This document shows, in pieces, positions 39,104 through 51,512 of a stretch of 59,649 nt of DNA. The notes beneath the pieces were generated by a model, which saw only the letters and a list, made by a program, of their open reading frames with translations, did not search any database and was not told where the DNA came from. Each line of letters begins with the position of its first letter. Within the stretch, counting starts at the first letter, position 1. Made by a program: the position numbers and the translations under genes. The stretch comes from a virus (Duplodnaviria; Caudoviricetes). Where the stretch lies: positions 1-59,649 of IMG/VR virus record IMGVR_UViG_3300008262_000102; one strand, written 5' to 3'.

Positions 39104-39551
39104 TTTTCTTTGACTTTACTTTGGCATCTGCCTTGTCGATGATTTGAAAAACCTTGTTGGCTAACACTCGCTCTTTACTAAAAGCTTCTACTTCCCAGGG
39201 CAGATCATAATAGTGTCCTCGGATTTTTTTGCCCATCCAAAATCTGCTATTTAGATTCTTCCCATGAGTAATCTGTCCTCGAGCATACTGCTTGACATGT
39301 ACCATTTCGTGTGCTAACGCGATAATTAATCGTTCAACATCAAGTGCAGTATCTATGCTCATACCTATGACTCTTGGTCCTAATTTAAACACGCTTCCTC
39401 GAAACCCCTCTTTAACACTCATCCCTCTTTCAGGAACCACTACCAACGAGTACCGACTGTTTTGTAATTTCAATTCATTTCGAAAAACTTGTAGGCAGGT
39501 TTCAACCAACATTTTGCTGGCGCTTTTTCTTGCCATAACTTGAATATCCAT
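39090..39551 (-). CDS. phage Zn metallopeptidase (HExxH)
   Basis: [10 protein letters not shown]...PWEVEA. Confidence 0.75.
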
Positions 39552-39574
39552 AAGAGCTCCTTGTGTGTTGCTTA

Positions 39575-39603
39575 ATTATACAGTCTCTTTTGAATATTGT
39601 CAA
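39575..39603 (-). promoter_or_regulatory. sigma70-type promoter TTGACA-17-TATAAT
   Basis: Perfect consensus. Confidence 0.8.
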
Positions 39604-39604
39604 G

Positions 39605-39678
39605 TGGTGCTCCAACCAAGAATCGAACTTGAAATACATCCTTACCAAGGATGCGTTATGCCATTTAACTATAGGAGC
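39605..39678 (-). tRNA. tRNA-Thr(GGT)
   Basis: Cloverleaf, CATCC-TTGGTAA-GGATG, CCA. Confidence 0.9.
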
Positions 39679-40246
39679 ATTCTATATCTGCTGCTAACAC
39701 AAAGCGATAGTGTTCGCTCTGCACTATGCCCGGGCGATGCCAGGTGTCGCTGGGATAAATGATCCAGTGGCCTTCGGCGGGTTTAATGAAATATTTTCCG
39801 TCTTGCTCTGCACCGTTGGGTGCTATCTCTGTGCCGCAATAGTCTCGATCTTTAACATCATTGGGAATATGCAGATAGTATATTCCGCTGAACATTTTAC
39901 TGTTTGGATTTTTTGGATGCCAGTGGTGATGCCATAAGTTGTCGCGATTTTCGGCACCCTGGAGATTTGTCATAAAACTCCAAGCCATCATTTCAGAGAC
40001 TTTTACTTCTCGTCCAAGATACATGAATACCGAGAACATAAAACTCATGCGGTATTTTAACCAAACAGCTTCTGGTCTAGCAAATATGTTTTCTTTGGTT
40101 TGGAATTTGGGACTATTGGTAAAGTAGTCACCATTGGTTATGATGTTAGTTACGATGCCGCAGGCAGCGATATCATCTTGCTCAGTGATGACACTGCGAA
40201 AATTAAATTTACGTACAAGTTCTGTTTGATCAACAACTGGCTGCAT
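39665..40246 (-). CDS. 2OG-Fe(II) oxygenase-like protein
   Basis: WHHH...SGIYYL...YPSDTWH...R. Confidence 0.6.
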   Translation of the reverse strand: MQPVVDQTELVRKFNFRSVITEQDDIAACGIVTNIITNGDYFTNSPKFQTKENIFARPEAVWLKYRMSFMFSVFMYLGREVKVSEMMAWSFMTNLQGAENRDNLWHHHWHPKNPNSKMFSGIYYLHIPNDVKDRDYCGTEIAPNGAEQDGKYFIKPAEGHWIIYPSDTWHRPGIVQSEHYRFVLAADIECSYS

Positions 40247-40254
40247 AGTGTCCT

Positions 40255-40328
40255 TGGAGCGGGATAAGAGAATCGAACTCTTGACCGAAGATTGGAAATC
40301 TGCTGTTTTACCATTAAACTAATCCCGC
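40255..40328 (-). tRNA. tRNA-Gly(TCC)
   Basis: Cloverleaf, loop TTTCCAA, TCCA end. Confidence 0.9.
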
Positions 40329-40352
40329 ACTATTTTACTTATCAACTGACCA

Positions 40353-40429
40353 TGGTCGGAGTACAAGGATTCGAACCTTGGACCTCCTGGTCCCAAACCA
40401 GGCGCACTACCAGGCTGTGCTACACTCCG
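40353..40429 (-). tRNA. tRNA-Pro(TGG)
   Basis: CCTGG-TTTGGGA-CCAGG, CCA. Confidence 0.9.
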
Positions 40430-40431
40430 AA

Positions 40432-40659
40432 TTATTCTACTTTTTTAAGATATTCTTTGCCTATCTTGCCTGCCTGTACGTCTAACAAGGCGCTAACAGG
40501 AGCATTGAGTTGAGTAGCATGTCCTGCTGCCTTGTGCCTACGACTAAGCTCTCTAGCTCTTACTGTAGCAATTAACACCAGATCGAATCTACTACCACCT
40601 ACTTGTTCCACACACTTTTCTGTATCTATGCCGGGACCTCGGCTGTCAGTTAGTTTCAT
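40432..40659 (-). CDS. rpoZ: RNA polymerase omega subunit
   Basis: EKCVEQVGGSRFDLVLIATVRAREL...ALLDVQAGKI; start at MKLTD because the longer ORF runs into a tRNA. Confidence 0.85.
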   Translation of the reverse strand: MKLTDSRGPGIDTEKCVEQVGGSRFDLVLIATVRARELSRRHKAAGHATQLNAPVSALLDVQAGKIGKEYLKKVE

Positions 40660-40677
40660 TTTTGCCTTTGTAAAAAC

Positions 40678-40753
40678 TGGTTGCGGGAGTCGGAGTCGAA
40701 CCGACGATCTGGAGCTTATGAGACTCCCGAGATACCACCTTCTCCATCCCGCG
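40678..40753 (-). tRNA. tRNA-Met(CAT), initiator-like (C1:A72 mismatch)
   Basis: CGCGGGA...TCCCGCA-A-CCA; loop CTCATAA. Confidence 0.85.
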
Positions 40754-40757
40754 ATAA

Positions 40758-40891
40758 CTTTATAGAGGCTCTCTGTTGGAATCGAACCAAACTGCTTAAC
40801 TCCGTATCTTCCTTGCACTTTCAGTGGGTAGTCGACTTAGCACCTACTTGTGTTCTCAAGTGTAGTTAAACTTCAAAGAGCTTTTATAAAG
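40758..40891 (-). ncRNA. candidate stem-closed ncRNA with a tRNA-type T arm
   Basis: Terminal stem UUUAUAAAAGCUCUUUG/CAGAGAGCCUCUAUAAA; UUGG-UUCGAUU-CCAA; no CCA. Confidence 0.5.
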
Positions 40892-41097
40892 TGTCTAGCT
40901 ACTCACACCACATGAGCCCTAAACTGAGCGGTTACTCTGTCCATAACATTTCTTCTTCTGGAATGGCGTTATACCACACCCTAGGCAGTTTCCAGTATCC
41001 CCCAACGGGGACTGTGAGGTCAGGTCCTAGTGTACCCCCTGTTCTCTCGTTTCAGGGACGCTATTTCGTTAACGTAGAAATAGTAAGACGGGGTCTG
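40892..41097 (-). ncRNA. candidate structured ncRNA, family unassigned
   Basis: Non-coding and GC-enriched, several hairpins (CUAUUUC/GAAAUAG, UCCCC/GGGGA). Confidence 0.35.
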
Positions 41098-41673
41098 TTA
41101 CAGCAGGCCTTCAGCTTGTAGCGTAGCCACTGTGTCGTCGCTGAGAGGAACCTCAGTCTTGATGTTTAACTCCAATACTTCGTCGTTGAGCTGTTGCTTC
41201 TGTTTCTTGAGATTCAAGATTTCTGCCTTGGCCTGCAAGATCTGATCCTTGCTTAGGATAGATGTAGATACGGTGTCAGTATAACCGTAAATGCTACGAC
41301 GGCTGGTTTCGCCTTTGTCGTTCTTGATCTTTTCCAACTTGCCTTTGATTACATCCAACGAAATCATTTCGCTGCCGTTTGCAAACTGTTCCAACTGACC
41401 AATGCGTTTATCAATAAACGCTGCCTTGGCCAATGCTGTGTTAATGCCGCTGGCTGCATTGGCTGTGCCGACCAAGGCACGGATGTTGTACAGAGCCATG
41501 ATCAGTTTCTGTCTGCGAGCATCGTTAGATACTAATTCAGAGTTGGCCTTAGTGATGGCATCTTCAACATTCTGGAACTCGTTGAGTTCGAGATTGAAAT
41601 CAATTTTGATACTTTTTACAGTATCGTTGATGCTGTTCTGTACAGCGTTGGCTTTTCTCAGTGTGATATTCAT
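41098..41673 (-). CDS. helical protein resembling the DIP1984 family
   Basis: Coiled-coil architecture ending QQLNDEVLELNIKTEV, compared with DIP1984 IQELNWTTEL (recalled, not searched). Confidence 0.5.
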   Translation of the reverse strand: MNITLRKANAVQNSINDTVKSIKIDFNLELNEFQNVEDAITKANSELVSNDARRQKLIMALYNIRALVGTANAASGINTALAKAAFIDKRIGQLEQFANGSEMISLDVIKGKLEKIKNDKGETSRRSIYGYTDTVSTSILSKDQILQAKAEILNLKKQKQQLNDEVLELNIKTEVPLSDDTVATLQAEGLL

Positions 41674-41968
41674 TTTCTTCCTTTATTCAAACAACAATGA
41701 CGGGTCAGCGAAAGGTCAAGTAATAGACCGGACAATGTACAAACGAAAGGGTTGTAATCTTTCTTGACAATGTGCAAATAACAATACACAGAGGTCCATA
41801 TATTTCCGATTAACAAATGACATTCTATTAGGGATCGGATCACATAAACACGTTCCAAGTTTCAAGTTTGGATTGTAAGTTTGGAGTAAGCATGAAGCTC
41901 ACGCCTTTTCGTCTATCCTCTTCTACCCTTCGCCTCACCGGTTGAAGCATTACTGCCCCAACAAAACT

Positions 41969-41997
41969 ATTATACAACGTTCGACTTGATATGTCAA
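41969..41997 (-). promoter_or_regulatory. sigma70-type promoter TTGACA-17-TATAAT followed by a ~290-nt untranslated leader
   Basis: Perfect consensus. Confidence 0.8.
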
Positions 41998-42013
41998 GTC
42001 TTTTTGGTAATCC

Positions 42014-42089
42014 TGGTGCCGGTTGTCGGATTCGAACTGACCACATCCGCCTTACAAGAGCGGCGCTCTACCTAATGAGCTAAACCGGC
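42014..42089 (-). tRNA. tRNA-Thr(TGT)
   Basis: CCGCT-CTTGTAA-GGCGG, CCA. Confidence 0.9.
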
Positions 42090-42142
42090 ATTAAAAATGA
42101 CATACTACTTATCCTATTATACACCATATGTCAGGGTGAATT

Positions 42143-42218
42143 TGGTGGAGGTGACAGGACTCGAACCCGCTACCTACTGCTTGCAAAGCAGCCGCTCTCC
42201 CAGCTGAGCTACACCCCC
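42143..42218 (-). tRNA. tRNA-Ala(TGC)
   Basis: G3:U70, loop TTTGCAA, CCA. Confidence 0.9.
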
Positions 42219-42228
42219 AAATAACTAA

Positions 42229-42441
42229 TTAATCTCTAGTCGACGCAGTACCAGTGGGATTCTTCTGATATCCACCCGGACCAGCAGGTCTCTTTTCACG
42301 CTTAGGCTGAATAGCAGCACACAGTTCAGCATCGATACATGCACGTTTCCACGCACCACGTTGATGTGCATCTTTGAACTTGCCTGTGGCTAAACTGATC
42401 TTAAGCAGCGAACTCATTCTATAATTTGGACCTGGTTTCAT
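42229..42441 (-). CDS. small basic hypothetical protein
   Basis: 70 aa, SD GAGGA. Confidence 0.6.
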   Translation of the reverse strand: MKPGPNYRMSSLLKISLATGKFKDAHQRGAWKRACIDAELCAAIQPKREKRPAGPGGYQKNPTGTASTRD

Positions 42442-42462
42442 ATATTTCCTCTTTTAAAAAAA

Positions 42463-42552
42463 TGGCGGAAGACCGGGGACTCGAACCCCGAAGACGTTTT
42501 AAAGCGACCGACGGTTTAGCAAACCGCTCCAATACCATTATGGGAGTCTTCC
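42463..42552 (-). tRNA. tRNA-Ser(GCT)
   Basis: Loop TTGCTAA, long variable arm, GCCA. Confidence 0.9.
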
Positions 42553-42559
42553 GTGTTGT

Positions 42560-42633
42560 TGGTACCTCGTGACAGAATTGAACTGCCGTGTCCGCTGTGT
42601 AAAAGCGGCATTCTACCATTAAATTAACGAGGC
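42560..42633 (-). tRNA. tRNA-Val(TAC)
   Basis: CCGCT-TTTACAC-AGCGG, CCA. Confidence 0.9.
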
Positions 42634-42635
42634 AA

Positions 42636-42708
42636 ACTATTCTGAAACACACTAAGTCTTAAAGTCCAACGATGAATTTACGACCAGCCTAATGTGTTTT
42701 AGAATAGT
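42636..42708 (-). ncRNA. candidate stem-closed small RNA (AACACA/UGUGUU stem family)
   Basis: ~16-bp terminal stem CUAUUCUAAAACACA/UGUGUUUCAGAAUAG. Confidence 0.45.
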
Positions 42709-43408
42709 GTTAAGACTGAGATTACATCTTAACCATAAGCACCTCTAGCATTACCGTACACCTTGCGAGCATACGTTCTCTAGACATCCACTAAGTCCAT
42801 ATCACTATGTAACCTAGTCTGCTTACAGTATCGCCGTTTTTAAAGACAGGCATTAGTCTTGTCGCTATGTGCTATTCTACACCATCTATCCCGTTAACCT
42901 TGCGAGCTATTCAGCGGCGCTAACCACTTACGAAACTTCCAGTATAAACTAATGTTACCTTGCGAGCTTCATTAGACTTGATTGTGTTGCCACTCAAGTA
43001 TTAGATACTTTTCACACATAACCGAGGCAGTCTTTGCATTTTTGTTGATAGTTGGGATCGAACCAACAGTCTATTTCTTAAAAGGAAATCGCGCTACCAT
43101 TACGCTATATCGAACCTACCGCGATGAGCTGCCTCTGTTGCTGAATAATCTTTTGAACTACCCAATACAACTCACCACATACCTTTTGCCTCGCGAGCTA
43201 CTCAGTGATGTTTCACGATCGGTGTACTGTATTACTACAGCCCACTAACCTCCACCGGTCTTATCAGTGAACGCTACCTCGCGGTAGTGAGCAGGCTTGT
43301 TTACGTGAACCATTTCTGGCGCTGGTATGTAGGCATTCCAGCTTTGGGTGTGTCGCCACACTTATTCTTCGTAGACGGCAAGCCGCCTACAGGACAATAA
43401 ACTGCCCT
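42709..43408 (-). ncRNA. large structured ncRNA, probably GOLLD RNA
   Basis: ~700 nt without a credible ORF inside a phage tRNA array; repeated GCUCGCRAGG GNRA-containing motifs (42761, 42898, 42958, 43189); 3' hairpin loop UGUAAUCUCAG complementary to internal CUGAG. Family assignment is from recalled features, not a covariance search. Confidence 0.7.
43043..43115 (-). tRNA. tRNA-Lys(TTT)-like module embedded in the large ncRNA (no CCA, bulged acceptor)
   Basis: D arm GCGU/GCGC, ATTTC-CTTTTAA-GAAAT, T arm GTTGG-TTCGATC-CCAAC. Confidence 0.7.
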
Positions 43409-43424
43409 TAAATTCTTTACCATT

Positions 43425-43579
43425 AAAAATAACATTAGACCCTATGGGATCAAGCATATTTCTGAGTGGAGTTCGATGCTCCTCATAAGCCATTGCTCAC
43501 GGTTATATCAGAAGAGTAAGATGGCCCTATTCTTCATGAGACTGTGCGTCCACAGACGATTCCCGTCAATGCTATTTTT
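43425..43579 (-). ncRNA. candidate stem-closed small RNA
   Basis: Terminal stem AAAAAUAGCAUUGAC/GUCUAAUGUUAUUUUU with internal hairpins. Confidence 0.4.
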
Positions 43580-43581
43580 AA

Positions 43582-43665
43582 TGGTGCCCCAGGAGAGACT
43601 CGAACTCTCACGCCTTGCGACATCGGCTTCTAAGACCGACGTGTCTACCATTCCACCACCGGGGC
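43582..43665 (-). tRNA. tRNA-Leu(TAG)
   Basis: Loop CTTAGAA, variable arm, CCA. Confidence 0.9.
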
Positions 43666-43682
43666 AAAATTACTAACCTAAC

Positions 43683-43694
43683 TTTTTAAAGAAC
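43683..43694 (-). promoter_or_regulatory. boxA-like Nus antitermination element
   Basis: GTTCTTTAAAAA between the promoter and tRNA-Leu/large ncRNA (rrn boxA consensus TGCTCTTTAACA). Confidence 0.5.
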
Positions 43695-43721
43695 GTTTAA
43701 CTAATTTCTTAGTATGTGTAT

Positions 43722-43750
43722 ATTGTAACATCATATTTAAATGCTGTCAA
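43722..43750 (-). promoter_or_regulatory. sigma70-type promoter TTGACA-17-TACAAT
   Basis: Near consensus. Confidence 0.75.
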
Positions 43751-43758
43751 CCTTTATC

Positions 43759-43833
43759 TGGCACCGCCTACAGGAATCGAACCCATATTCAAGAGGTAGA
43801 AGCTCTTTGTATTATCCATTATACTAAAGCGGT
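43759..43833 (-). tRNA. tRNA-Arg(TCT)
   Basis: AAGAG-CTTCTAC-CTCTT, GCCA. Confidence 0.9.
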
Positions 43834-43834
43834 A

Positions 43835-43918
43835 TGGTGCGAGAGACGGGACTCGAACCCGTATGCCTTTCGGCGGCAGATTTTAAGTCTGCTGTGTATA
43901 CCATTCCACCACTCTCGC
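43835..43918 (-). tRNA. tRNA-Leu(TAA)
   Basis: GCAGA-CTTAAAA-TCTGC, variable arm, CCA. Confidence 0.9.
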
Positions 43919-43927
43919 ATTATTCTG

Positions 43928-44152
43928 TTATCTACGTGATGCACCAATACGACTAGATTTATTCCAGTCATATGCTACACCATCAGGACATTGACCGTCC
44001 TGAATACTATCAACTCCAAACACACCACAAACTTCAAATTCAGGTCCGTTGATAGTTACAAAAATTCCTACAGTTTTGGCGAATGCCATTGCTTCGTTTA
44101 GAGTTGGGCACGAATTTAATGGTAGCCCGTTTTTGCTTATTATTTCATACAT
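43928..44152 (-). CDS. hypothetical protein (possibly leaderless)
   Basis: ATG 7 nt downstream of the -10 box. Confidence 0.6.
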   Translation of the reverse strand: MYEIISKNGLPLNSCPTLNEAMAFAKTVGIFVTINGPEFEVCGVFGVDSIQDGQCPDGVAYDWNKSSRIGASRR

Positions 44153-44158
44153 GCGTGT

Positions 44159-44187
44159 ATTATACATTCTGTTGCTGATGTTGTCAA
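44159..44187 (-). promoter_or_regulatory. sigma70-type promoter TTGACA-17-TATAAT
   Basis: Perfect consensus. Confidence 0.8.
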
Positions 44188-44199
44188 CAACTATTTTAT

Positions 44200-44275
44200 T
44201 GGTGCCGCCCCTAGGGATCGAACCTAGTTCCTCGGTGCTTCAAACCGGTGCAATGACCACATTTGCTAAAGCGGC
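44200..44275 (-). tRNA. tRNA-Phe(GAA)
   Basis: Loop TTGAAGC, CCA. Confidence 0.85.
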
Positions 44276-44278
44276 GTT

Positions 44279-45322
44279 TTAATTGATCCAATCGACCATT
44301 TCAGCCATTCGTCTACGATATTCCGAAACAAATGGTTCTTTAACATAGGGTATGTATGGGTTGGTCTGTACAAAGTTATAATCGTGTTGCATTCTGTAAC
44401 ACATTCTGTTTGTTATACCACCCAATCTTCTATGTAACGTAATAGAATTATCAAATAAACATAAGTCTGTATCTGATTGATACCAATGATCATACATGTA
44501 TTTTTCTACAAATAATTCATTTTGTATTTTATCTAATAATTTTTTAGATTCTATATCAGACATTCCTTCGATCTTACTAATCGTGTTCACACTTATATGC
44601 AGTCCTTTGTGTCCCCCAGGACTGGTTACGATCAACGGGATTCTCGAATCGTCTACTGGACACATATTTTTCTGCATTATAGAATCTTGTTCTTCTATAA
44701 GTCCGGGATTTATTCTTCCTGGAGTGAACCGGTGAAGCAGTACCATTTCATCTAGCTCACTTCTAAAACTCTCACTTAATGATTCATAATAATCAACCGT
44801 GGTCAAAAAGCCAGTGGCACTTCCTACTACACCCGATCTACCTAACAGCGACACTCCGGGAGTAAAACACAAATCTCCCGATTCGTTGCTATGCCACAGT
44901 AACTCTCCTTCGGCAAACATTCCCAAAGGGTCACCGCTGGGATCTTTCATTCCAGTGACCTTCATTATAGAAGTTGGCTTTCCGTCTTCGATGAGCATGA
45001 GTTTACTGGCAGATCTTAAAAATTTCTTATCATCATCATCTATGACGTTGGAATTTTCTAAAACTTTTTGAAAAATTTCACCTACGGAAACTCCATACTT
45101 TTTTTGTAATCTGTGCGCTTGATTTGTTCTCGGTAGCCCCAGTTTAAAAATTAATTCTTCGTACCTAAACGTGTTTAGATTTGTATTTCTTATAATAGTT
45201 ACTAATTTTTCTAGGTGCAATTTTCCTATCTCTTGCCATTCTTCGTTGGTTATATTATCAAAGTCAACATCGTCGATGAAGACCCCAAATCTCCCCAACC
45301 CTGGTATTTTACTAATTTTCAT
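44279..45322 (-). CDS. TauD/TfdA-family 2OG-Fe(II) dioxygenase
   Basis: LWHSNE, DHWYQSDTDLCLFDNSITLHRR...R. Confidence 0.8.
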   Translation of the reverse strand: MKISKIPGLGRFGVFIDDVDFDNITNEEWQEIGKLHLEKLVTIIRNTNLNTFRYEELIFKLGLPRTNQAHRLQKKYGVSVGEIFQKVLENSNVIDDDDKKFLRSASKLMLIEDGKPTSIMKVTGMKDPSGDPLGMFAEGELLWHSNESGDLCFTPGVSLLGRSGVVGSATGFLTTVDYYESLSESFRSELDEMVLLHRFTPGRINPGLIEEQDSIMQKNMCPVDDSRIPLIVTSPGGHKGLHISVNTISKIEGMSDIESKKLLDKIQNELFVEKYMYDHWYQSDTDLCLFDNSITLHRRLGGITNRMCYRMQHDYNFVQTNPYIPYVKEPFVSEYRRRMAEMVDWIN

Positions 45323-45370
45323 ATAATTCCCTCTCCATATTTATTAATTGAAATATCAGCGGGATAGACA

Positions 45371-46816
45371 TTAACAATTTTTCAAATGTTTTTTATATTC
45401 AAGTATCTTATTTTGAATTTTAACATGCACATCGGGATTATGTATTAAATCGATTAATCTTGTATTGAGAAGGTCTTTCCATGAACCAAGTCCCATTGCA
45501 GCACAATCCATTAGAGGCCAGCTATGGGCTGTGTTGCTTCTTTCTGTATTGAACTCTTTTGCTATGTTAGAGGCATCGTCAAAATTAGTCCAATCATTGG
45601 TCCAGCTATAGTTATTTCCTCTATCTAATCGATATCCATATTTTTCATAGTTCTTGTCGATGTCACTTTGATATCTCATTTTTGTTCGTATAAACAAAGG
45701 ACTCCAAATGGTGTTGAAATCATATTCTTGACACCATTCAAAACTTTTCCTACAACTATCAATAGTTTCATGCGGCAATCCAACAATAAACGAACAGATA
45801 AAATTAGAGCCATTGTCGGGATTGAAATGACTTTCTTTTAATTCTATAAGAAATTCTTTTATTTTTTCGCTATGAAAACCTTTTCCGACTGCTTTTGCAG
45901 ATTCTAGATTTAGACTTTCTACTCCAAAAAAACCGCTGCGTAATCCCATTTCTTTAAGCAAAGTGATTTGATCTCTATGTGCATGAAGCAGATCTAATCT
46001 AAGATAGGTTATAAAGTTTACCTTAAATGGCAAACTTGTAATAACTCTGTGTATCTTTTCTAGCTTTTCTGTACTGTCATTAAATGTGTCATCACAGAAA
46101 GTGTAATTGGTTACTCCAAATTTTTCATAATTTCTTATAAATTCTTCTCTTAAAAATTCATAGTCACGAATGTAATCTAATTTCTTTTTACCTGTTAACT
46201 GAAAATTGCAAAACTTACATTTGAAAATGCAACCTCTGCTAATTTCTATAGGTAACGTTTCTCCTGGAAAAATAACATCGTTATCTTCCCATTGATGTTT
46301 AAGATGCTCGATGTCTACAGGATAGTGTTCACCTTCTATAATTTTTGTACCCAGAGAAATATTCCAAATTGGTTTTTTCTTACCCACCAATGACAGAGCG
46401 TACTCTATTACAGAATTATCTGAGTATCCATGAAATACCGCATCAAAAATAGGATCTCCTATTTCTTGATGACTGTGTGCTCCACCTGAGATAAATTGAA
46501 TCTTTGGATGTAAAGATTTTATCTGTTTTAACACTTCTTTTAACGAGGCCGGCGTCCCTTCGCTAAACGTAGCATGCATCTGTGTCACATCTACGTGTTG
46601 AAAAAAGGTAGTGCTAACTCCGATGATCTTTGTATTATCTCCGATGAACAACTCGATGGTTTCTAACAGTTCATTGTTTGAAAAACTGTTTACCATAGGG
46701 ATAACTTGTACTGAAAACCCATTTCTTCTTAACGAGTCTGCTATTCTGTAAGGCCCTATTGTTTTAGCGAATGGCGCGACAGATAGATGAGTTAATAATA
46801 TCACATCATATTTCAT
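45371..46816 (-). CDS. cobalamin-dependent radical SAM protein (paralog of 23254)
   Basis: EISRGCIFKCKFC, DDTFND, IVGLPHET. Confidence 0.85.
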   Translation of the reverse strand: MKYDVILLTHLSVAPFAKTIGPYRIADSLRRNGFSVQVIPMVNSFSNNELLETIELFIGDNTKIIGVSTTFFQHVDVTQMHATFSEGTPASLKEVLKQIKSLHPKIQFISGGAHSHQEIGDPIFDAVFHGYSDNSVIEYALSLVGKKKPIWNISLGTKIIEGEHYPVDIEHLKHQWEDNDVIFPGETLPIEISRGCIFKCKFCNFQLTGKKKLDYIRDYEFLREEFIRNYEKFGVTNYTFCDDTFNDSTEKLEKIHRVITSLPFKVNFITYLRLDLLHAHRDQITLLKEMGLRSGFFGVESLNLESAKAVGKGFHSEKIKEFLIELKESHFNPDNGSNFICSFIVGLPHETIDSCRKSFEWCQEYDFNTIWSPLFIRTKMRYQSDIDKNYEKYGYRLDRGNNYSWTNDWTNFDDASNIAKEFNTERSNTAHSWPLMDCAAMGLGSWKDLLNTRLIDLIHNPDVHVKIQNKILEYKKHLKNC

Positions 46817-46870
46817 TAAAATACTTATCGCAGTTTTAACAACAGCTGTAAATTTTTAAAAGTAACATAC

Positions 46871-46971
46871 ATATCTAAACACACAAGCCACCGTCACTCT
46901 TTCAAGTATCGACAATGCCGCAGGCCAAGCCCTAAGAGTTACACTCGTTCTTTCACTGGTGTGTTTAGATA
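46871..46971 (-). ncRNA. candidate stem-closed small RNA (AACACAC/GUGUGUU stem family)
   Basis: Perfect 14-bp terminal stem AUAUCUAAACACAC/GUGUGUUUAGAUAU directly after the tRNA-Val CCA. Confidence 0.5.
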
Positions 46972-47045
46972 TGGTAGTTCCTACAAGAATTGAACTTGTG
47001 TCTTTACCATGTCAAAGTAATGTTCTACCATTAAACTAAGGAACT
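46972..47045 (-). tRNA. tRNA-Val(GAC)
   Basis: Loop TTGACAT, CCA. Confidence 0.9.
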
Positions 47046-47050
47046 ATACT

Positions 47051-47124
47051 TGGGGTGAAGCCGGGAATCGAACCCTGTCAAACTGATTCACAGTCAGTTA
47101 TGCAACCACTACATCAGCAACACC
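47051..47124 (-). tRNA. tRNA-His(GTG)
   Basis: ACTGA-CTGTGAA-TCAGT; G-1:C73; two U.U mismatches in the acceptor. Confidence 0.85.
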
Positions 47125-47130
47125 ATTGAT

Positions 47131-47205
47131 TGGTACCCCTGGATGGAATCGAACCACCGTCCCCACGTTCGTAGCATGGTATCCTATCCGTTGAACGACA
47201 GAGGT
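47131..47205 (-). tRNA. tRNA-Arg(ACG)
   Basis: Loop CTACGAA, CCA. Confidence 0.9.
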
Positions 47206-47210
47206 AAACT

Positions 47211-47285
47211 TGGCCGGGCTTGAGAGGATCGAACTCCCACCGTCGGTTTCGAAGACCGAAATGATATCCATTTCACCAAAGCCCG
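47211..47285 (-). tRNA. tRNA-Arg(TCG)
   Basis: TCGGT-CTTCGAA-ACCGA, GCCA. Confidence 0.9.
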
Positions 47286-47290
47286 ATATA

Positions 47291-47364
47291 TGGCAGGCGT
47301 GCTAGGGCTCGAACCTAGAATAACAGAGTCAAAGTCTGTGGTGTTACCATTACACTACACGCCA
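47291..47364 (-). tRNA. tRNA-Gln(TTG)
   Basis: ACAGA-CTTTGAC-TCTGT, GCCA. Confidence 0.9.
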
Positions 47365-47374
47365 ACATATTGAA

Positions 47375-47595
47375 TTTGTAAGCCTACGTCACGTTTATCG
47401 TAGATTTATTCAGGACTTACCGGCCGCCTAGCCTGACCTCGAGCACGATGGATATCACTTGGGTTTCCACCAGCGTAGTCTCCTTTACAGACCTCCGCAG
47501 TTCCCCGCGGGTGGGAGTTGAACCCATTTGCCTTTTGCGTCTAAGTACCTTCGAAGAATACTTTGAACGTGTTTCCACTTGCTGACGCTTACAAA
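47375..47595 (-). ncRNA. candidate Y-RNA-like (circularly permuted tRNA-mimic) ncRNA
   Basis: Terminal stem UUUGUAAGC.GUCA/UGAC..GCUUACAAA; inside: T arm, loop-closed GC stem, then D-like arm. Confidence 0.5.
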
Positions 47596-47598
47596 ACT

Positions 47599-47673
47599 TG
47601 GTGCCCCAGGAAGGAATCGAACCTCCGCACCCTGCTTACAAGGCAGGACCTCTACCACTAAGGATACAAGGGC
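47599..47673 (-). tRNA. tRNA-Thr(TGT)
   Basis: CCTGC-CTTGTAA-GCAGG, CCA. Confidence 0.9.
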
Positions 47674-47679
47674 AAAAAC

Positions 47680-47755
47680 TGGTCTCCCTACTTGGATTCG
47701 AACCAAGACCCTACGGCCCCAAACCGCAAATGCAACCAGATAACACTTTAGAGAG
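47680..47755 (-). tRNA. tRNA-Pro(TGG)
   Basis: Loop TTTGGGG, CCA. Confidence 0.85.
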
Positions 47756-47760
47756 ATAAT

Positions 47761-47835
47761 TGGTGGAGGCCGAGAGTATCGAACTCTTCTAGACATGATT
47801 CTTGCAAGGAACCACCGCAGCCCTCTGCTGCCCCC
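47761..47835 (-). tRNA. tRNA-Ala(TGC), atypical D arm
   Basis: G3:U70, loop CTTGCAA, D arm GCAG-AGGG-CTGC, no U8. Confidence 0.75.
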
Positions 47836-47849
47836 GAATTTAAAAATAG

Positions 47850-48004
47850 GTTTTCCGAGTGCCCAACTATCCTCCTGGGAGGACTCACTGGATTGTCTCG
47901 ACAGGGCAAGTTTATGCTACCGTCATAGCCGTCTGTGGTGTCATACAGCCGACCTAAACTGTACTAGGCTTGCGGGACTCAAACCCTGCGTCTATCTCAG
48001 AAAC
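47850..48004 (-). ncRNA. candidate stem-closed ncRNA with T-loop-like arm
   Basis: GUUUCUGAG/CUCGGAAAAC ends; GCAGGG-UUUGAGU-CCCGC near the 5' end. Confidence 0.4.
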
Positions 48005-48005
48005 T

Positions 48006-48080
48006 TGGTGGTAAAGGTGAGATTCGAACTCACACTGGGCACCGTATGAAGGTGTTGCACAACCATTATGCTACTTTACC
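48006..48080 (-). tRNA. tRNA-CAT (elongator Met or Ile2)
   Basis: Loop TTCATAC, CCA. Confidence 0.85.
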
Positions 48081-48207
48081 ATATGTTAACACACTCGGCT
48101 CCCCTTACAACCTTGTTCCTGTCAATTCAGGATGCACCTGGAATGAACCCAGCGGATCCCCTTGGTTGTTTGTATCTGTCAATTCAGATTGAAAGTGTGT
48201 TAGCATA
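48081..48207 (-). ncRNA. candidate stem-closed small RNA with twin CUG-AAUUGA-CAG hairpins
   Basis: Terminal stem AUAUGCUAACACACU/AGUGUGUUAACAUAU exactly fills the gap between two tRNAs. Confidence 0.5.
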
Positions 48208-48282
48208 TGGTAGGGGCACAGGGACTCGAACCCTGATAGACCGGTTAAAAGCCGGCTATTCTAGCCTTTGAATTATACCCCC
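48208..48282 (-). tRNA. tRNA-Lys(TTT)
   Basis: Loop CTTTTAA, CCA. Confidence 0.9.
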
Positions 48283-48285
48283 ATA

Positions 48286-48360
48286 TGGTCCACGCTCTGA
48301 GAATCGAACTCAGTTAGTCCGGTTAAGAGCCGGGTACTTCGCCACTAAAGTTTAGCGTGG
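48286..48360 (-). tRNA. tRNA-Lys(CTT)
   Basis: Loop CTCTTAA, CCA. Confidence 0.85.
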
Positions 48361-48446
48361 ATGGATCGTAAATATTTTCTTTTACGTGCCATCTAAGACC
48401 ATACGGGGGTCAAAGATGACACTAACGTTTACCTGAACGTTTCATG

Positions 48447-48575
48447 TCATTCTCCTTGTTTAATATTACGTTTTTGTGCTTGTCTTTCTGACTTCCAGAA
48501 GATTCGCTTCCAGTCCTTGAGGTGCTTCCACCATTGAGGACTCTTAGTAAGATTGCCTTGCTTTACATTCGCCAT
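48447..48575 (-). CDS. small basic Trp-rich protein (42 aa)
   Basis: MANVKQGNLTKSPQWWKHLKDWKRIFWKSERQAQKRNIKQGE*; SD AGGAG. Confidence 0.65.
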   Translation of the reverse strand: MANVKQGNLTKSPQWWKHLKDWKRIFWKSERQAQKRNIKQGE

Positions 48576-48589
48576 TGCTTTCTCCTATA

Positions 48590-48663
48590 TGGTTCCCAGA
48601 ACAAGAATCGAACTTGTAATGACCGGTTATCAGCCGATTGTTATACCATTTAACTATCCGGGA
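48590..48663 (-). tRNA. tRNA-Ile(GAT)
   Basis: Loop CTGATAA, CCA. Confidence 0.9.
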
Positions 48664-48669
48664 ATAATT

Positions 48670-48759
48670 TGGCGGAAGTGGTAGGATTCGAACCCACGGC
48701 CCCTTTCGGAACTTCAGTTTTCAAGACTGCTGCCTTAAGCCAGACTCAGCCACACTTCC
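48670..48759 (-). tRNA. tRNA-Ser(TGA)
   Basis: Loop CTTGAAA, long variable arm, GCCA. Confidence 0.9.
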
Positions 48760-48767
48760 TTAAACTT

Positions 48768-48848
48768 TGGTACCCCTGCCCGGACTCGAACCGGGATACA
48801 TAACACTCCTTTTGAGAGAGCTGCCTTTACCAATTTGGCCACAGGGGC
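48768..48848 (-). tRNA. tRNA-Leu(CAA)
   Basis: Loop CTCAAAA, CCA. Confidence 0.85.
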
Positions 48849-48850
48849 AT

Positions 48851-48928
48851 TGGAGTGTCGGGTCAGATTTGAACTGACGGTTTTACGGATTTGCAATCCG
48901 TTGCAATGGGCCTCTCTGCCACCGACAC
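48851..48928 (-). tRNA. tRNA-Cys(GCA)
   Basis: ACGGA-TTGCAAA-TCCGT, U73-CCA. Confidence 0.9.
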
Positions 48929-48932
48929 ATAA

Positions 48933-49024
48933 TGGTACCAGCGGAGGGAATCGAACCCTCTCAAGAACGCTAATCTGGCGCTAAAAGGTTTATAAAACCT
49001 CTCTGACTACCAAGTCTCGCTGGC
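48933..49024 (-). tRNA. tRNA-Ile(TAT), atypical (short D arm, long variable arm)
   Basis: GAGGT-TTTATAA-ACCTT; 92 nt; CCA. Confidence 0.7.
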
Positions 49025-49031
49025 ATATGAA

Positions 49032-49166
49032 TTTGTTTATCGTCACACAATGTCCAAGTCGTGCGCTGAACGTATCGACTACGTTTGCTACGGGCTTCAG
49101 GTACAGTAACAAGTGTCTTGGGCGACTCGCTACTCACATATGGGTAACCGTACACACATAAACAAA
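49032..49166 (-). ncRNA. candidate stem-closed small RNA
   Basis: Terminal stem UUUGUUUAU/AUAAACAAA between tRNA-Gly and tRNA-Ile. Confidence 0.35.
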
Positions 49167-49168
49167 AC

Positions 49169-49242
49169 TGGAGCGGGATAGGAGAATCGAACTCCTGACT
49201 AAACCTTGGCAAGGTTTCGTTTGACCATTAAACTAATCCCGC
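49169..49242 (-). tRNA. tRNA-Gly(GCC)
   Basis: AAACC-TTGCCAA-GGTTT, TCCA. Confidence 0.9.
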
Positions 49243-49245
49243 AAT

Positions 49246-49320
49246 TGGTACACGATACGAGAATCGAACTCGTCTTTCCGCCTTGAAAGGGCAGCGTCCT
49301 AACCGATAGACGAATCGTGC
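49246..49320 (-). tRNA. tRNA-Glu(TTC)
   Basis: Loop CTTTCAA, CCA. Confidence 0.9.
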
Positions 49321-49328
49321 AAATTGTT

Positions 49329-49402
49329 TGGCTACCCTCCAGGGACTCGAACCCCGACGAACAGTTTTGGAGACTGTCATGCTGCCATTACATTAGAGAG
49401 TA
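49329..49402 (-). tRNA. tRNA-Trp(CCA)
   Basis: ACAGT-CTCCAAA-ACTGT, GCCA. Confidence 0.9.
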
Positions 49403-49407
49403 ATATT

Positions 49408-49483
49408 TGGCTCCCCAGGGTAGGATCGAACTACCGACACCTTGATTAACAGTCAAGTGCAACTACCGCTGTGCTACTGGGGA
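49408..49483 (-). tRNA. tRNA-Asn(GTT)
   Basis: CTTGA-CTGTTAA-TCAAG, GCCA. Confidence 0.9.
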
Positions 49484-49489
49484 ATAAAC

Positions 49490-49565
49490 TGGCGCCTCGT
49501 AGGGGAGTCGAACCCCTGTATTCCGCTAGACAGGCGGATATAATAGACCGTTATATGAACGAGGC
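49490..49565 (-). tRNA. tRNA-Asp(GTC)
   Basis: TCCGC-CTGTCTA-GCGGA (U37), GCCA. Confidence 0.85.
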
Positions 49566-49569
49566 AATC

Positions 49570-49658
49570 TGGTGGAAGTGGTAGGATTCGAACCTACAAC
49601 GTTTCTTATGTGGCGGATTTACAGTCCGTTGCCTTCAACCAATTCAGCACACACTTCC
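49570..49658 (-). tRNA. tRNA-Tyr(GTA)
   Basis: Loop CTGTAAA, variable arm, CCA. Confidence 0.9.
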
Positions 49659-49912
49659 ATTATTTGTAAACACACTCTCCGCTATGCTTTTTGACACCGT
49701 CAAAGGGTGAAAGGAGAATGTGTGTATTAAAATATTCTAATAACGCCTGCTATGCAGTACTACGCTATGGGTGTAGCCGTCCCTATAGAATACTTTAATA
49801 CGCTGTAATTTTTCGCTCTAGAAGAAGAGTTTCATCCTACAGGCCGCCCGTTTGCTCTATGTTTTAAGTGCAGAGCGAGGACCTCGTTTCCTCTTTTTCA
49901 CACTTTGCGCTT

Positions 49913-50086
49913 TCAGTTTACACTAAACATCGGCAATTTTGCCAACGACTCGTGATACACTTTAGCACGATCGAACTTATCTTGAATAAGTTTTTGAAGT
50001 TGTTCTTTAGACATTTCTCCAAGAACACCTTCATAAGCCTGTTCAACAATACGTTCATTCAATTTTGCGTAATCTATCTGTTTCAT
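49913..50086 (-). CDS. small hypothetical protein (57 aa), first gene after the attenuator
   Basis: MKQIDYAKLNERIV...; SD AAGGA; the longer ORF-track start crosses the terminator. Confidence 0.6.
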   Translation of the reverse strand: MKQIDYAKLNERIVEQAYEGVLGEMSKEQLQKLIQDKFDRAKVYHESLAKLPMFSVN

Positions 50087-50099
50087 TTTTCCTTTGTTA

Positions 50100-50135
50100 A
50101 AAACAAAAAACCCCAGGGTTTTAATCCTAGGGTCC
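50100..50135 (-). terminator. attenuator (conditional Rho-independent terminator) upstream of the tRNA operon
   Basis: GACCCUAGG-AUUAAAAC-CCUGGGGUU followed by UUUUGUUUUU; the 5' arm GGACCCU is also complementary to AGGGUCC at 50180-50186. Confidence 0.75.
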
Positions 50136-50162
50136 TTGAAGTTTGTTGTGTTAACTTGTGTG

Positions 50163-50309
50163 TTACACGACAGTCCTCCGGACCCTTTGAATCTCTGGTG
50201 TACGATCATATGATAGACTTCCGCCATTAATCGATAACCAAGAACAGGCTATTACACCTGCCAGTTTGGGCATCGTATTAAATTGTTGATGTCTATTGAA
50301 CGATTGCAT
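50163..50309 (-). CDS. putative attenuator leader peptide (48 aa, all 20 amino acids)
   Basis: MQSFNRHQQFNTMPKLAGVIACSWLSINGGSLSYDRTPEIQRVRRTVV*; its 3' end forms the antiterminator arm. Confidence 0.65.
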   Translation of the reverse strand: MQSFNRHQQFNTMPKLAGVIACSWLSINGGSLSYDRTPEIQRVRRTVV

Positions 50310-50365
50310 TTTGCTTTCCAATTTACCTTTTCTTTATAAACAGCACCTTTGCTGCCTATGTGTTA

Positions 50366-50394
50366 ATTATAGCGCCTTTCGGCACACCTGTCAA
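50366..50394 (-). promoter_or_regulatory. sigma70-type promoter TTGACA-17-TATAAT (tRNA operon, proximal)
   Basis: Perfect consensus. Confidence 0.85.
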
Positions 50395-50464
50395 CCTCTT
50401 TTGTAATTTATTTTGTTGTATTTCTACAACACCTATGAACTACATTGTCTGCTAACTTGTTTCA

Positions 50465-50493
50465 ATTGTACATTTATTTAGCCAGGTTGTCAA
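50465..50493 (-). promoter_or_regulatory. sigma70-type promoter TTGACA-17-TACAAT (tandem)
   Basis: Near consensus, TAAATA in the spacer. Confidence 0.7.
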
Positions 50494-50549
50494 CCACTTT
50501 TTGTAATTCTGGCAAAAAAGTTTTGACTCTCTTCTAAACAACTGTGTGT

Positions 50550-50578
50550 AGTATACGACCTTTTTATTTAGCTGTCAA
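50550..50578 (-). promoter_or_regulatory. sigma70-type promoter TTGACA-17-TATACT (tandem)
   Basis: Near consensus, TAAATA in the spacer. Confidence 0.7.
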
Positions 50579-50617
50579 CTAAAATCTATATACTTTATGT
50601 GGCTTTTTTGCCACAGT

Positions 50618-50884
50618 TTATTCTGTGTCAGAGATACCAGTCTCACTGGAGATCAGTAAGTGCTTGCCAATCTCAAACAAGCCTATGCTACCAGGAAGGT
50701 CCAACGCACACACATGTATCTGTGTGATGCCATCTTCATCTATGCTGGCTGCTACGAACTCTGCGATCTCTCCACTCTGAACCATCAATCGCATTGCGTC
50801 AATGACATCGAGAAGATCTTGTTTGCGTTTAGCCTCGGCTTCTAGTTTTCCGCCTAATACAACTACTTTTGAATCTGTTTTCAT
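50618..50884 (-). CDS. hypothetical protein
   Basis: 88-aa ORF. Confidence 0.65.
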   Translation of the reverse strand: MKTDSKVVVLGGKLEAEAKRKQDLLDVIDAMRLMVQSGEIAEFVAASIDEDGITQIHVCALDLPGSIGLFEIGKHLLISSETGISDTE

Positions 50885-50891
50885 CTTGTTC

Positions 50892-51470
50892 TCACTCTAA
50901 AATATGATCAGCTATGCCTATGTCCAACACTTCTTGTGCGGTAAGGTACACATCCGATGGCGGCAGTAATTTTTTCTTGATTACCGATGGAGCAAGTCCA
51001 GTGGCTTCTTTGAGAATATTAATCATTTTGTCATTGCAGATATCATTTTCTTTCATAGTGGCTTTCAAATCATGATATTTGTTTTCCATGTTTTCTGAAA
51101 ATTGGTGACACATGAAACTGGTATTTTTAGCAGCATATCTCTGTCCTCGATCAGCGGCTGCAAAGATTAGAAAGGCAGCACTCATCACTGAGCCTATACC
51201 TATGCATCGAACCACATGAGGACTGGCCTGCATGACATCGATCAATCCAAACGCCTGATAGAGGTCGCCCCCTGTAGAATTTATATACAGAGTAAGAACT
51301 TTTTCTTTGGAGACGTCTAGATTTTCGCAGATCAGCCATTTGGCGCAGGCACCTACAGATTCTTCACAGATTTCACCGTTTAGAAAATACGTATTGTTTT
51401 CCAACAGTTTGAGATCAATGCGATCCTCGGCATTAAAATCTTCCAGTTTTCTCACTTTTTGCTCCATCAT
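50892..51470 (-). CDS. clpP: Clp protease proteolytic subunit (ClpP family)
   Basis: LYINSTGG, SVMSAAFLI (catalytic Ser), FMCHQ (His), DVYLTAQE...GIADHI. Confidence 0.85.
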   Translation of the reverse strand: MMEQKVRKLEDFNAEDRIDLKLLENNTYFLNGEICEESVGACAKWLICENLDVSKEKVLTLYINSTGGDLYQAFGLIDVMQASPHVVRCIGIGSVMSAAFLIFAAADRGQRYAAKNTSFMCHQFSENMENKYHDLKATMKENDICNDKMINILKEATGLAPSVIKKKLLPPSDVYLTAQEVLDIGIADHILE

Positions 51471-51512
51471 GTACTCTTACTTATGCTTTGTAATATTATA
51501 CTTTAATTACTG

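Follow-up and report, generated by a model that had tools for sequence, protein, structure and literature searches.

Introduction

In the trpL, hisL, pheL, leuL, thrL and ilvL attenuators, a short leader with codon runs that specify from one to three amino acids controls their biosynthesis, and the attenuators with upstream open reading frames (uORFs) that Term-seq has found at resistance genes are short leaders that respond to drug-stalled ribosomes. Here we describe a 48-codon leader open reading frame (ORF), followed by an antiterminator and an intrinsic terminator, at the head of a tRNA array on a stretch of viral DNA of 59,649 nucleotides (nt) (Duplodnaviria; Caudoviricetes; IMG/VR record IMGVR_UViG_3300008262_000102, positions 1 to 59,649), the whole of which we call the window. 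Sequence and comparison with relatives make it reasonably probable, in our view, that this element is a ribosome-mediated (leader-peptide) transcription attenuator which gauges the decoding of every amino acid.

The closest described leader in terms of composition is the uORF of whiB7 in Mycobacterium smegmatis. The sections of the source that deal with it (PMC10274678) report that this uORF holds 19 of the 20 amino acids, all except Cys, that it is induced by knock-down of genes for 18 of the 20, and that removal of the Trp or His codons abolishes the response to the matching starvation; the starvations to which read-through responds are set by the composition of the uORF, and without its start codon read-through is constitutive. 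According to the same sections the uORF is enriched for Ala, and the M. tuberculosis version is without several amino acids. A tRNA array under stress control is found in Anabaena sp. PCC 7120, where the trn operon, as the relevant parts of two reports describe it (PMC8421152, PMC10272220), is a horizontally spread extra array whose expression stays low until translation is impaired.

Results

Architecture of the leader and the proposed switch

What follows on the parts of the element and how far they are conserved, on the open reading frame, on covariation and on biased composition is read from the sequence and its comparison with relatives; all coordinates of the leader, the switch, the downstream ORF2 and the tRNA array are on the minus strand (Table 1). 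Three sigma-70-type promoters stand in tandem before the leader. The initial annotation of this DNA had listed one of them, the perfect TTGACA-17-TATAAT promoter P3, which is present as described, and we have added P1 and P2; transcription from P3 would be expected to start at about 50359. That annotation had also placed a 48-codon ORF after the promoter, with only a modest Shine-Dalgarno (SD) sequence, all 20 amino acids, 38 distinct codons and a stretch of 28 consecutive codons (12-39) in which none is repeated, and an intrinsic terminator after the ORF, and on each of these points the sequence agrees with it. Its placing of the tRNA operon directly after the terminator had to be corrected, as the 57-codon ORF2 intervenes and the first tRNA gene, tRNA-Tyr, starts at 49658.

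The terminator has a G+C-rich stem of 7 bp and a U6GU5 tract (50110-50099). The antiterminator is a longer hairpin in which an outer helix pairs AGGGUCC (50186-50180) with GGACCCU (50135-50129), and a second helix pairs GAGG (50178-50175) with CUUC (50141-50138). A long alternative hairpin had been drawn at this place in the initial annotation, and the pairing of AGGGUCC with GGACCCU and the extension of the apical part across the UAA stop both stand, whereas the second arm lies at 50178-50175 and does not end at 50176 as had been proposed. The UAA stop is situated inside the apical hairpin, and the last seven leader codons are also contained within the 58-nt structure. The sequence ACCCU is common to the antiterminator 3' arm and the terminator 5' arm, so that the two structures are mutually exclusive and the antiterminator sequesters the terminator 5' arm, again as first proposed.

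An unconstrained fold of the 3' part adopts the long hairpin and lacks the terminator, and for the leader as a whole the folding energy is -80.6 kcal/mol (z = -5.7). With the two states enforced in turn in each of 113 versions of the leader (see below), the energy of the antiterminator minus that of the terminator averages -1.08 +/- 1.68 kcal/mol, the antiterminator state being computed as the more stable in 86; near-equal energies of two states are what a switch needs. No fourth, anti-antiterminator segment appears in the fold of the window leader, no dedicated search for one having been made across the relatives. A search with Rfam over 39000-51500 (E <= 1) gives no match on the leader, T-box and riboswitch models included, the hits in that stretch being confined to tRNAs and the GOLLD RNA.

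Table 1. Positions in the window of the leader, its proposed switch and the flanking features
Feature	Position	Strand	Remarks
ClpP-like protease	50892-51470	-	PHROG 94, head maturation protease, E 1e-25; just upstream of the tandem promoters
88-residue ORF without family	50618-50884	-	just upstream of the three tandem promoters
Promoter-like site P1, TTGACA-17-TATACT	50550-50578	-	11/12 consensus match
Promoter-like site P2, TTGACA-17-TACAAT	50465-50493	-	11/12 consensus match
Promoter P3, TTGACA-17-TATAAT	50366-50394	-	12/12 sigma-70 consensus match; TTGACA 50394-50389, spacer 17 nt, TATAAT 50371-50366
5' terminal hairpin, 24 nt	50336-50359	-	paired in the minimum-energy leader fold
Shine-Dalgarno-like GGAAAG	50314-50319	-	weak, purine-rich; sequence reading
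Leader ORF, 48 codons + TAA	50163-50309	-	20 amino acids, 38 distinct codons; ATG 50309, TAA 50165-50163
Gauge part, codons 1-39	50193-50309	-	a ribosome stalled here would leave the antiterminator 5' arm free
Antiterminator hairpin, 58 nt	50129-50186	-	-24.4 kcal/mol, z = -4.8; 0/200 shuffles fold as well
Intrinsic terminator	50099-50132	-	CCCUAGG/CCUGGGG, 50132-50126 with 50117-50111; 8-nt loop; -11.6 kcal/mol
ORF2, 57 codons	49913-50086	-	first gene after the terminator; good SD (AAAGGAAAAATG)
tRNA array, first block	46972-49658	-	21 tRNAs, Tyr to Val; ARAGORN, Rfam
tRNA array, whole	39605-49658	-	34 tRNAs, 30 distinct anticodons, all 20 amino acids
GOLLD RNA, full length	42713-43178	-	within the tRNA array; Rfam RF02032, 203.5 bits

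A family of relatives

Relatives were collected in two ways. A peptide search of viral contigs with the 48-residue leader gave 66 loci, all with intact ORFs of 46-52 codons, and a search by nucleotides only, with a 19-letter pattern from the terminator 5' arm, which avoids selection for an ORF, gave at least 119 further stretches. Among the 186 sources at least 180 have 260 nt or more upstream of the arm; every one of these has an ATG-initiated ORF there, with the stop codon 5-45 nt before GGACCC in all 180 loci. They reduce to at least 114 distinct leader ORFs, to which the counts out of 114 below refer, and whose peptides form 18 clusters at 50% identity. A covariance-model search of 950 kb finds one copy per locus.

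The initial annotation had predicted that relatives would keep the length of the ORF, a high codon diversity and a covarying antiterminator while the peptide itself drifted, and this attenuator logic for a tRNA array is matched by the comparative evidence set out in the following sections; the opposite case, in which the peptide is kept and the RNA pairing or the codon diversity is not, was looked for among the relatives and was not seen.

Evidence for translation of the leader

Across the leader span the annotated frame is free of stop codons in all 114 versions, compared with 10 for the +1 frame and none for the +2 frame; the reverse frames are open in 0, 17 and 2 of the 114. The ORF has 42-53 codons in 113/114, its stop codon is TAA in 113/114, and its length changes among relatives in frame, as seen in the alignment and the peptides. 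Near the 3' end of the leader, single-base changes in or beside the RNA helix sum to three in some relatives. The position of the stop is also fixed with respect to the RNA structure, as it starts 21-24 nt past the first base of the antiterminator 5' arm in 105 versions and 21-28 nt past it in 113. The open frame, the in-frame insertions and deletions, the layout of promoter and start and the fixed position of the TAA argue for translation of the leader ORF, and it is indicated on these grounds.

The start itself takes two forms in the family. A promoter with at least 10/12 consensus matches lies within 110 nt of the ATG in 107/114 versions, and is perfect in 62 of these. In 13/114, belonging to several divergent clusters, the -10 box ends only 6-12 nt before the leader ATG (loci of this type include L086, L103, L155, L165, L183, L087, L070, L115, L156, L131, L099 and L080), a spacing that points to a leaderless mRNA with the AUG at its 5' end. 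The other versions have a 5' hairpin and a weak SD (GAGAAA or AAGAAA) in A-rich surroundings; the letters of the hairpin stem vary in the alignment of relatives while its self-complementarity is kept, and both hairpin and SD are missing from the leaderless versions. The 5' leader thus holds a short ORF with a usable start, by way of a weak SD or a leaderless AUG.

The peptide itself is probably not the product for which the ORF is kept. In the largest cluster (53 distinct versions) pairwise differences at codon positions 1, 2 and 3 are 0.32, 0.32 and 0.37, with 7336 synonymous and 18645 nonsynonymous codon differences; as third-position bias is nearly nil and nonsynonymous differences dominate, the peptide appears barely constrained. 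It has no match in Pfam, NCBIfam or PHROG. The motif S-x-[YN]-D-R-T-P-E is widely kept, as is one Trp. At many codons, among them those of GAT CGY ACA CCA GAG ATT, the third position does not vary either, and this fixation at synonymous sites suggests a constraint on the RNA or on codon identity.

The RNA of this motif, GAUCGYACACCAGAG (D-R-T-P-E; 50193-50210, minus strand), is nearly invariant in most clusters, synonymous sites included. It just precedes the antiterminator, and may serve as a pause signal or binding site, or may result from a codon-level constraint.

Conservation of the proposed switch

The alternative pairing is kept in the relatives by changes on both sides. The outermost antiterminator pair is A-U in 81 of the 114 distinct versions, G-C in 22 and G-U in 4, with a mismatch in 7; the fourth pair of the terminator stem is U-G in 26, U-A in 23 and C-G in 15 (n = 64), and the T-to-C change that makes the antiterminator outer pair G-C also improves this terminator pair. 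In a covariance-model alignment of 100 sequences, 94.4% of the cells of the antiterminator are paired as against 87.6% in shuffled alignments, and the covariation score is 0.251 as against 0.138, neither value being reached in any of 500 shuffles. Double-sided changes occur in 9 of its 15 pairs, and sliding the partner by 1-3 columns lowers the pairing to 14.5-55%. In all 100 sequences the terminator lies between the ORF and the downstream genes, a count that is partly due to ascertainment. The overlap of the alternative pairing with the terminator 5' arm, together with the position of the ORF, is such that a ribosome could choose between the structures.

RNAalifold recovers only the terminator from a 64-sequence alignment of the whole leader, and nothing from a 97-sequence alignment of the ORF. 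The alignment program MAFFT had misplaced the variable parts, for which reason folds of single sequences and the covariance-model alignment were used instead. A single ORF-internal structure common to the family was considered and rejected, as clusters 7, 8 and 11 fold differently; the sole ORF-internal structure to recur is a central G+C hairpin. The start region is joined to codons 35-37 by a long-range helix in the largest cluster.

Amino-acid and codon composition

For the window leader by itself the composition is only suggestive. The probability of at least 38 distinct codons in 48 is 0.035 for uniform codons and 0.0004 for random 48-codon windows of long phage ORFs, and that of all 20 amino acids in 48 residues is 0.032 and 0.049 respectively; it is the family-wide result that gives significance.

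All 20 amino acids are present in 98/114 leaders and 19 in the remaining 16, at least 19 being found in all 18 clusters, and an internal Met is present in 111/114. The null was built from 724 long ORFs at the same loci; of random 42-48-codon windows drawn from these ORFs, 1.9-4.9% contain all 20 amino acids and 12-22% at least 19; uniform codons give all 20 in 1.2-3.2%. ORF2, taken as a control, has all 20 in 3/76 homologues, with a mode of 17. The bias extends to the part of the leader that precedes the antiterminator, which we refer to as the gauge part; its limits are inferred from the ribosome footprint and unwinding reach. In the window the gauge part already contains all 20 amino acids. 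Among 113 versions it is 32-41 codons long in 111, with all 20 amino acids in 82 and 19 in 22, for a null expectation of all 20 of 0.0016-0.013 at 33-40 codons.

The amino acids are kept although their positions wander. Cys is present in 113/114 leaders at a mean of 1.12 copies; the 18 cluster representatives place it in 15 different alignment columns, and the background predicts a presence of 0.50 for them. When an amino acid has been lost by a cluster representative from every position that it has in the window type, it is present elsewhere in the leader in 139 of 146 cases, with a background expectation of 113.1. A conservative test, in which residues identical to the window type are kept and the others redrawn, gives a Fisher p of 5e-4 over 17 clusters; this and the other cluster-level composition tests are approximations.

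Codon diversity is high as well, with a mean of 36.0 distinct codons per leader (0.76 of the length) as against 29.2 +/- 2.7 in 48-codon phage windows and a ratio of 0.56 in ORF2. This follows mostly from the high diversity of amino acids. The synonymous variety beyond what the peptide imposes is a modest excess (Fisher p = 1e-4, 18 cluster representatives), so that the signal appears to be mainly one of all amino acids rather than of all codons. Most amino acids occur in one to three copies, and there is no run of one codon as in a classical attenuator. Under strict wobble rules the codons of the window leader address 28 of the 30 anticodon classes of the phage tRNAs (null 21.25 +/- 2.11, P = 0.0013), while CCC, GCC and TCT have no phage tRNA to read them.

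ORF2 and the tRNA array

The genes beyond the terminator are ORF2 and tRNA genes, and not genes of amino-acid biosynthesis as in the classical attenuators. ORF2 has 76-77 distinct homologues of 48-58 residues, which carry the motif HTL[ST]-x-E/D-Q-x-K/R-K-L-I-x-D/E-K-x-E-R-A, have a strong SD, begin 10-33 nt (16-20 nt in most) past the U tract and are usually the first gene after the terminator. Differences at the three codon positions among homologues of at least 60% identity are 0.29, 0.23 and 0.48, with 3213 synonymous and 4704 nonsynonymous, and with this third-position enrichment ORF2 behaves as expected of a protein. It has no match in PHROGs, Pfam or NCBIfam. It may be co-regulated with the tRNAs.

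A co-oriented tRNA gene follows 206-1198 nt (median 423) past the terminator in 110 of 124 distinct contexts. Of the 14 contexts without a downstream tRNA, 13 have 556 nt of flank or less, and where there is enough flank the leader stands upstream of a co-oriented tRNA array in 110/111. In 109/124 contexts there are no tRNAs upstream of the leader. On the minus strand of the window no promoter-like site above 9/12 lies between 50100 and 49659, and in the family the best site between terminator and first tRNA has at most 9/12 matches in 74/110, 10 in 17 and 11-12 in 19. With mostly no promoter past the terminator, transcription of the first part of the array appears to require read-through in most genomes, but not in all.

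Within the array, tRNA-Lys(UUU) (43043-43114) lies inside the span of the GOLLD RNA. ARAGORN reports a 92-nt tRNA-Ile(UAU) at 48933-49024 (minus strand), an unusually long tRNA-like gene that Rfam scores best as tRNA-Sec, at 35.7 bits and thus under the gathering score of 47. The array is split by two auxiliary-enzyme genes. From the leader to tRNA-Phe ARAGORN lists 22 tRNAs, none of them for Ala, and the array as a whole has tRNAs for all 20 amino acids.

Assembled contigs from metatranscriptomes (four lake or freshwater runs from four studies, word shares 0.13-0.35) cover the leader at 90-100% identity, with the summed depth highest over 50072-50340, and several of them bridge the terminator into the downstream region (for example 49823-50285). 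They are a weak hint of leader expression, since relatives pile up on the conserved part and carry-over of DNA is possible, and contigs of this kind cannot show transcript ends, strand, level or regulation.

Source phage and neighbouring genes

CheckV estimates the completeness of the 59.6-kb record at 16%, from which it follows that only part of a very large phage genome is represented; the phage is a giant one from a lake and is uncultured. In GenBank phage records blastn (E 1e-5) gives no match to the DNA of the leader region, and tblastn none to ORF2. There is thus no cultured relative known in the GenBank phage collection, from which the same or very near genomes may be excluded. A scan of GTDB finds the 19-nt terminator-arm pattern on six contigs of metagenome-assembled genomes (L187-L192), the first of them 273 kb long and labelled Mycobacterium. 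The labels of the six (Mycobacterium, Actinomycetota, Polynucleobacter, Bacillota, Nitrospirota and 'bacterium'), which are spread over five phyla, are discordant and these contigs are probably mis-binned DNA of giant phages; as the labels disagree, no host assignment was drawn from them.

The 88-residue ORF upstream of the promoters has no PHROGs, Pfam or NCBIfam match. Elsewhere in the window auxiliary enzymes are dense, at 9528-11033, 16678-18090, 23254-24723, 26605-27777, 30054-31814 and 44279-46816. They include a protein of the tryptophan-halogenase family, five radical-SAM proteins, of which two have B12-binding domains and one has SPASM, and a taurine-dioxygenase-like protein with 46-50% identity to Prochlorococcus phage proteins.

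Discussion

A model for the switch

From the arrangement described above we infer translation of the leader, the direction of the switch and the signal that it senses. In the proposed model transcription starts at the strong sigma-70-type promoters and a ribosome translates the 48-codon leader behind the moving RNA polymerase. If decoding is fast, the ribosome would reach the last codons and the UAA and cover the antiterminator 5' arm (AGGGUCC-GAGG), leaving ACCCU free for the terminator stem, so that transcription would end at the U tract. When the stop codon occupies the A site, the ribosome should cover roughly 15-18 nt upstream. In the leader such a ribosome should cover GAGG and most of AGGGUCC, and not GGACCCU, which lies 23-35 nt downstream. 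A delay within about the first 39 codons, or no ribosome loading at all, would allow the antiterminator to form, and polymerase to read into ORF2 and the tRNAs; the antiterminator would form first because its 5' arm is made before the terminator 3' arm. As no upstream segment pairs with the 5' arm in the fold of the leader, absence of translation should give read-through, unlike in the trp leader. We also speculate that the helix between the start region and codons 35-37 could limit the leader to one round of translation.

Because every amino acid is represented, the leader would gauge all charged tRNAs or overall decoding speed and not a single amino acid. Shortage of any charged tRNA, or slow decoding, is thus predicted to raise transcription of ORF2 and the tRNAs, and plentiful tRNA to shut it down, and as read-through would yield tRNAs for all amino acids this would amount to a demand-driven feedback on tRNA supply. 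More tentatively, and with appreciable doubt on our part, the gauge may be read largely with the phage's own tRNAs, given the 28 of 30 anticodon classes that it addresses; the array would then be self-regulating and would act as an inducible counter-defence that replaces the whole tRNA pool when any one species is lost, cleavage by host anticodon nucleases or other tRNA-targeting defences included.

Weighing the model

Several observations weigh against this model or against the strength of the evidence for it. The SD is weak (GGAAAG, and GAGAAA in relatives). The many invariant third positions suggest a constraint at the level of RNA for which the model gives no reason, and the ORF interior is predicted to contain cluster-specific structures, with some compensatory changes, that are outside the model. 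By computed energies 27/113 versions favour the terminator state. At locus L128 there is no tRNA within 6.8 kb downstream, and in 19/110 contexts a promoter-like site of 11-12/12 follows the terminator ahead of the first tRNA. In one clade with five distinct versions (L109, L110, L120, L123 and L163) the gauge part contains only 16 different amino acids and no promoter of 10/12 or better lies within 110 nt of the ATG; this version is perhaps derived, or driven in another way. For two further small clusters the gauge-part count is 17-18. In addition, the loci were found by way of the peptide or the terminator arm, so that those parts are ascertained, the antiterminator alignment was fitted to the structure tested and thus favours it, and the sequences are related, so that cluster-level P values are not fully independent.

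The alternative nearest to the proposed model keeps the same RNA switch and takes it to gauge general translation capacity, or the coupling of transcription and translation, rather than each charged tRNA; it would sense ribosome availability, the rate of initiation or host shut-off, perhaps as an infection timer, with composition secondary. The geometry of the switch is indeed such that it should respond to any delay, failed ribosome loading included, the family has two modes of initiation (with a leader and leaderless), and the helix between the start region and codons 35-37 in the largest cluster could restrict translation to one round. We consider this unlikely, since it leaves unexplained why positions wander and all 20 amino acids are kept nevertheless (139 relocated as against 7 lost; Cys in 113/114), and why all 20 are found in the gauge part alone in 82/113. 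The further suggestion that the locus is no more than a gene encoding a small functional peptide, complete with a strong promoter and a terminator, the hairpin being a 3' stabiliser and the position before the tRNAs a matter of synteny, would account for an ORF that is intact in all relatives, for the widely kept S-x-[YN]-D-R-T-P-E motif and Trp and, weakly, for the metatranscriptome contigs of four studies with their depth peak at 50072-50340. It is quite unlikely in view of the codon-position pattern, which is unlike that of ORF2, the fixation of the motif at synonymous sites, which points to the RNA or the codons, and the lack of any family match; moreover the hairpin and the terminator are mutually exclusive, near-isoenergetic and covarying, and the downstream genes are mostly without a promoter of their own.

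Two explanations place the function in the RNA. The terminated leader of about 260 nt might be an abundant trans-acting small RNA, possibly besides a cis-acting switch, for which rnTrpL of Sinorhizobium, as far as the source describes it (PMC6614838), is a precedent. A strong promoter and a terminator, the strongly structured leader, stretches such as GAUCGYACACCAGAG that are invariant at the nucleotide level and, weakly, the peak of contig depth in RNA libraries would fit such a molecule; with no known target, no Rfam match at E <= 1, an internal structure that varies among clusters and the open frame and composition left unexplained, we hold it to be very unlikely. It is less probable still that a factor which binds the leader RNA directly (a protein, uncharged tRNA as in T-boxes, or a small molecule) sets the switch and that the ORF is incidental. 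The invariant stretches in the ORF and the conserved central G+C hairpin speak for it, but no T-box or riboswitch is found by Rfam at E <= 1, and the open frame, in-frame indels, leaderless starts and fixed stop position need translation. We accordingly retain a leader-peptide attenuator that gauges all amino acids as the preferred explanation.

The leader bears on why large phages carry tRNA sets and on how the sets are controlled, as a translated test frame that samples every amino acid before the array would tie tRNA transcription to decoding performance. If the model is true, this would be the first attenuator known to control tRNA genes, a natural example of a sensor whose coverage of the amino acids selection has kept complete, and a small module of about 260 nt with a sigma-70 promoter that could serve as a reporter of translation stress. 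The leader also gives a direct route to ask whether phage tRNAs respond to host tRNA-targeting defences.

Comparison with known systems

A search of full-text literature found no leader-peptide attenuator before tRNA genes and no leader that is kept complete for all amino acids. The suggestion in the initial annotation that the design had gone undescribed therefore holds for tRNA genes, for which none was found, and has to be tempered by the whiB7 uORF, which in the parts of its description cited above is a partial precedent (PMC10274678). The enterobacterial attenuators share with the phage leader a short translated leader, an overlapping antiterminator and a stop-codon ribosome that favours termination; however, they have a fourth segment (1:2 pairing), by which absence of translation leads to termination, and for the phage leader the opposite is expected. 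In the resistance-gene uORFs and in pyrBI, as in the phage leader, stalling or transcription-translation coupling sets premature termination, but the pyrBI leader ORF runs through the terminator and close coupling prevents termination, which is of opposite sign to the phage leader. The Anabaena trn operon resembles the phage array in being an extra tRNA array induced by translation stress, although its control, as given in the parts of the sources concerned with it (PMC8421152, PMC10272220), is by a ribbon-helix-helix repressor, TrcR, at the promoter of a cellular operon and not by a leader/terminator switch.

The likeness is greatest for whiB7 (wblC) of mycobacteria and other Actinobacteria, which as described in the sections on the uORF (PMC10274678) also has a translated uORF, a terminator and an antiterminator, with stalling leading to read-through. 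There is no sequence relationship between the two, as judged from the differing hosts and sequences and not by alignment. As far as those sections go, whiB7 is cellular, the target under control is a transcription factor that serves drug resistance and alanine supply rather than tRNA genes, and full coverage is not kept in its uORF. In mixed composition the phage leader goes beyond the whiB7 type. The class of mechanism is thus an established one, and what is new in the phage leader is the tRNA-gene target, the phage setting and the evident selection for complete amino-acid coverage.

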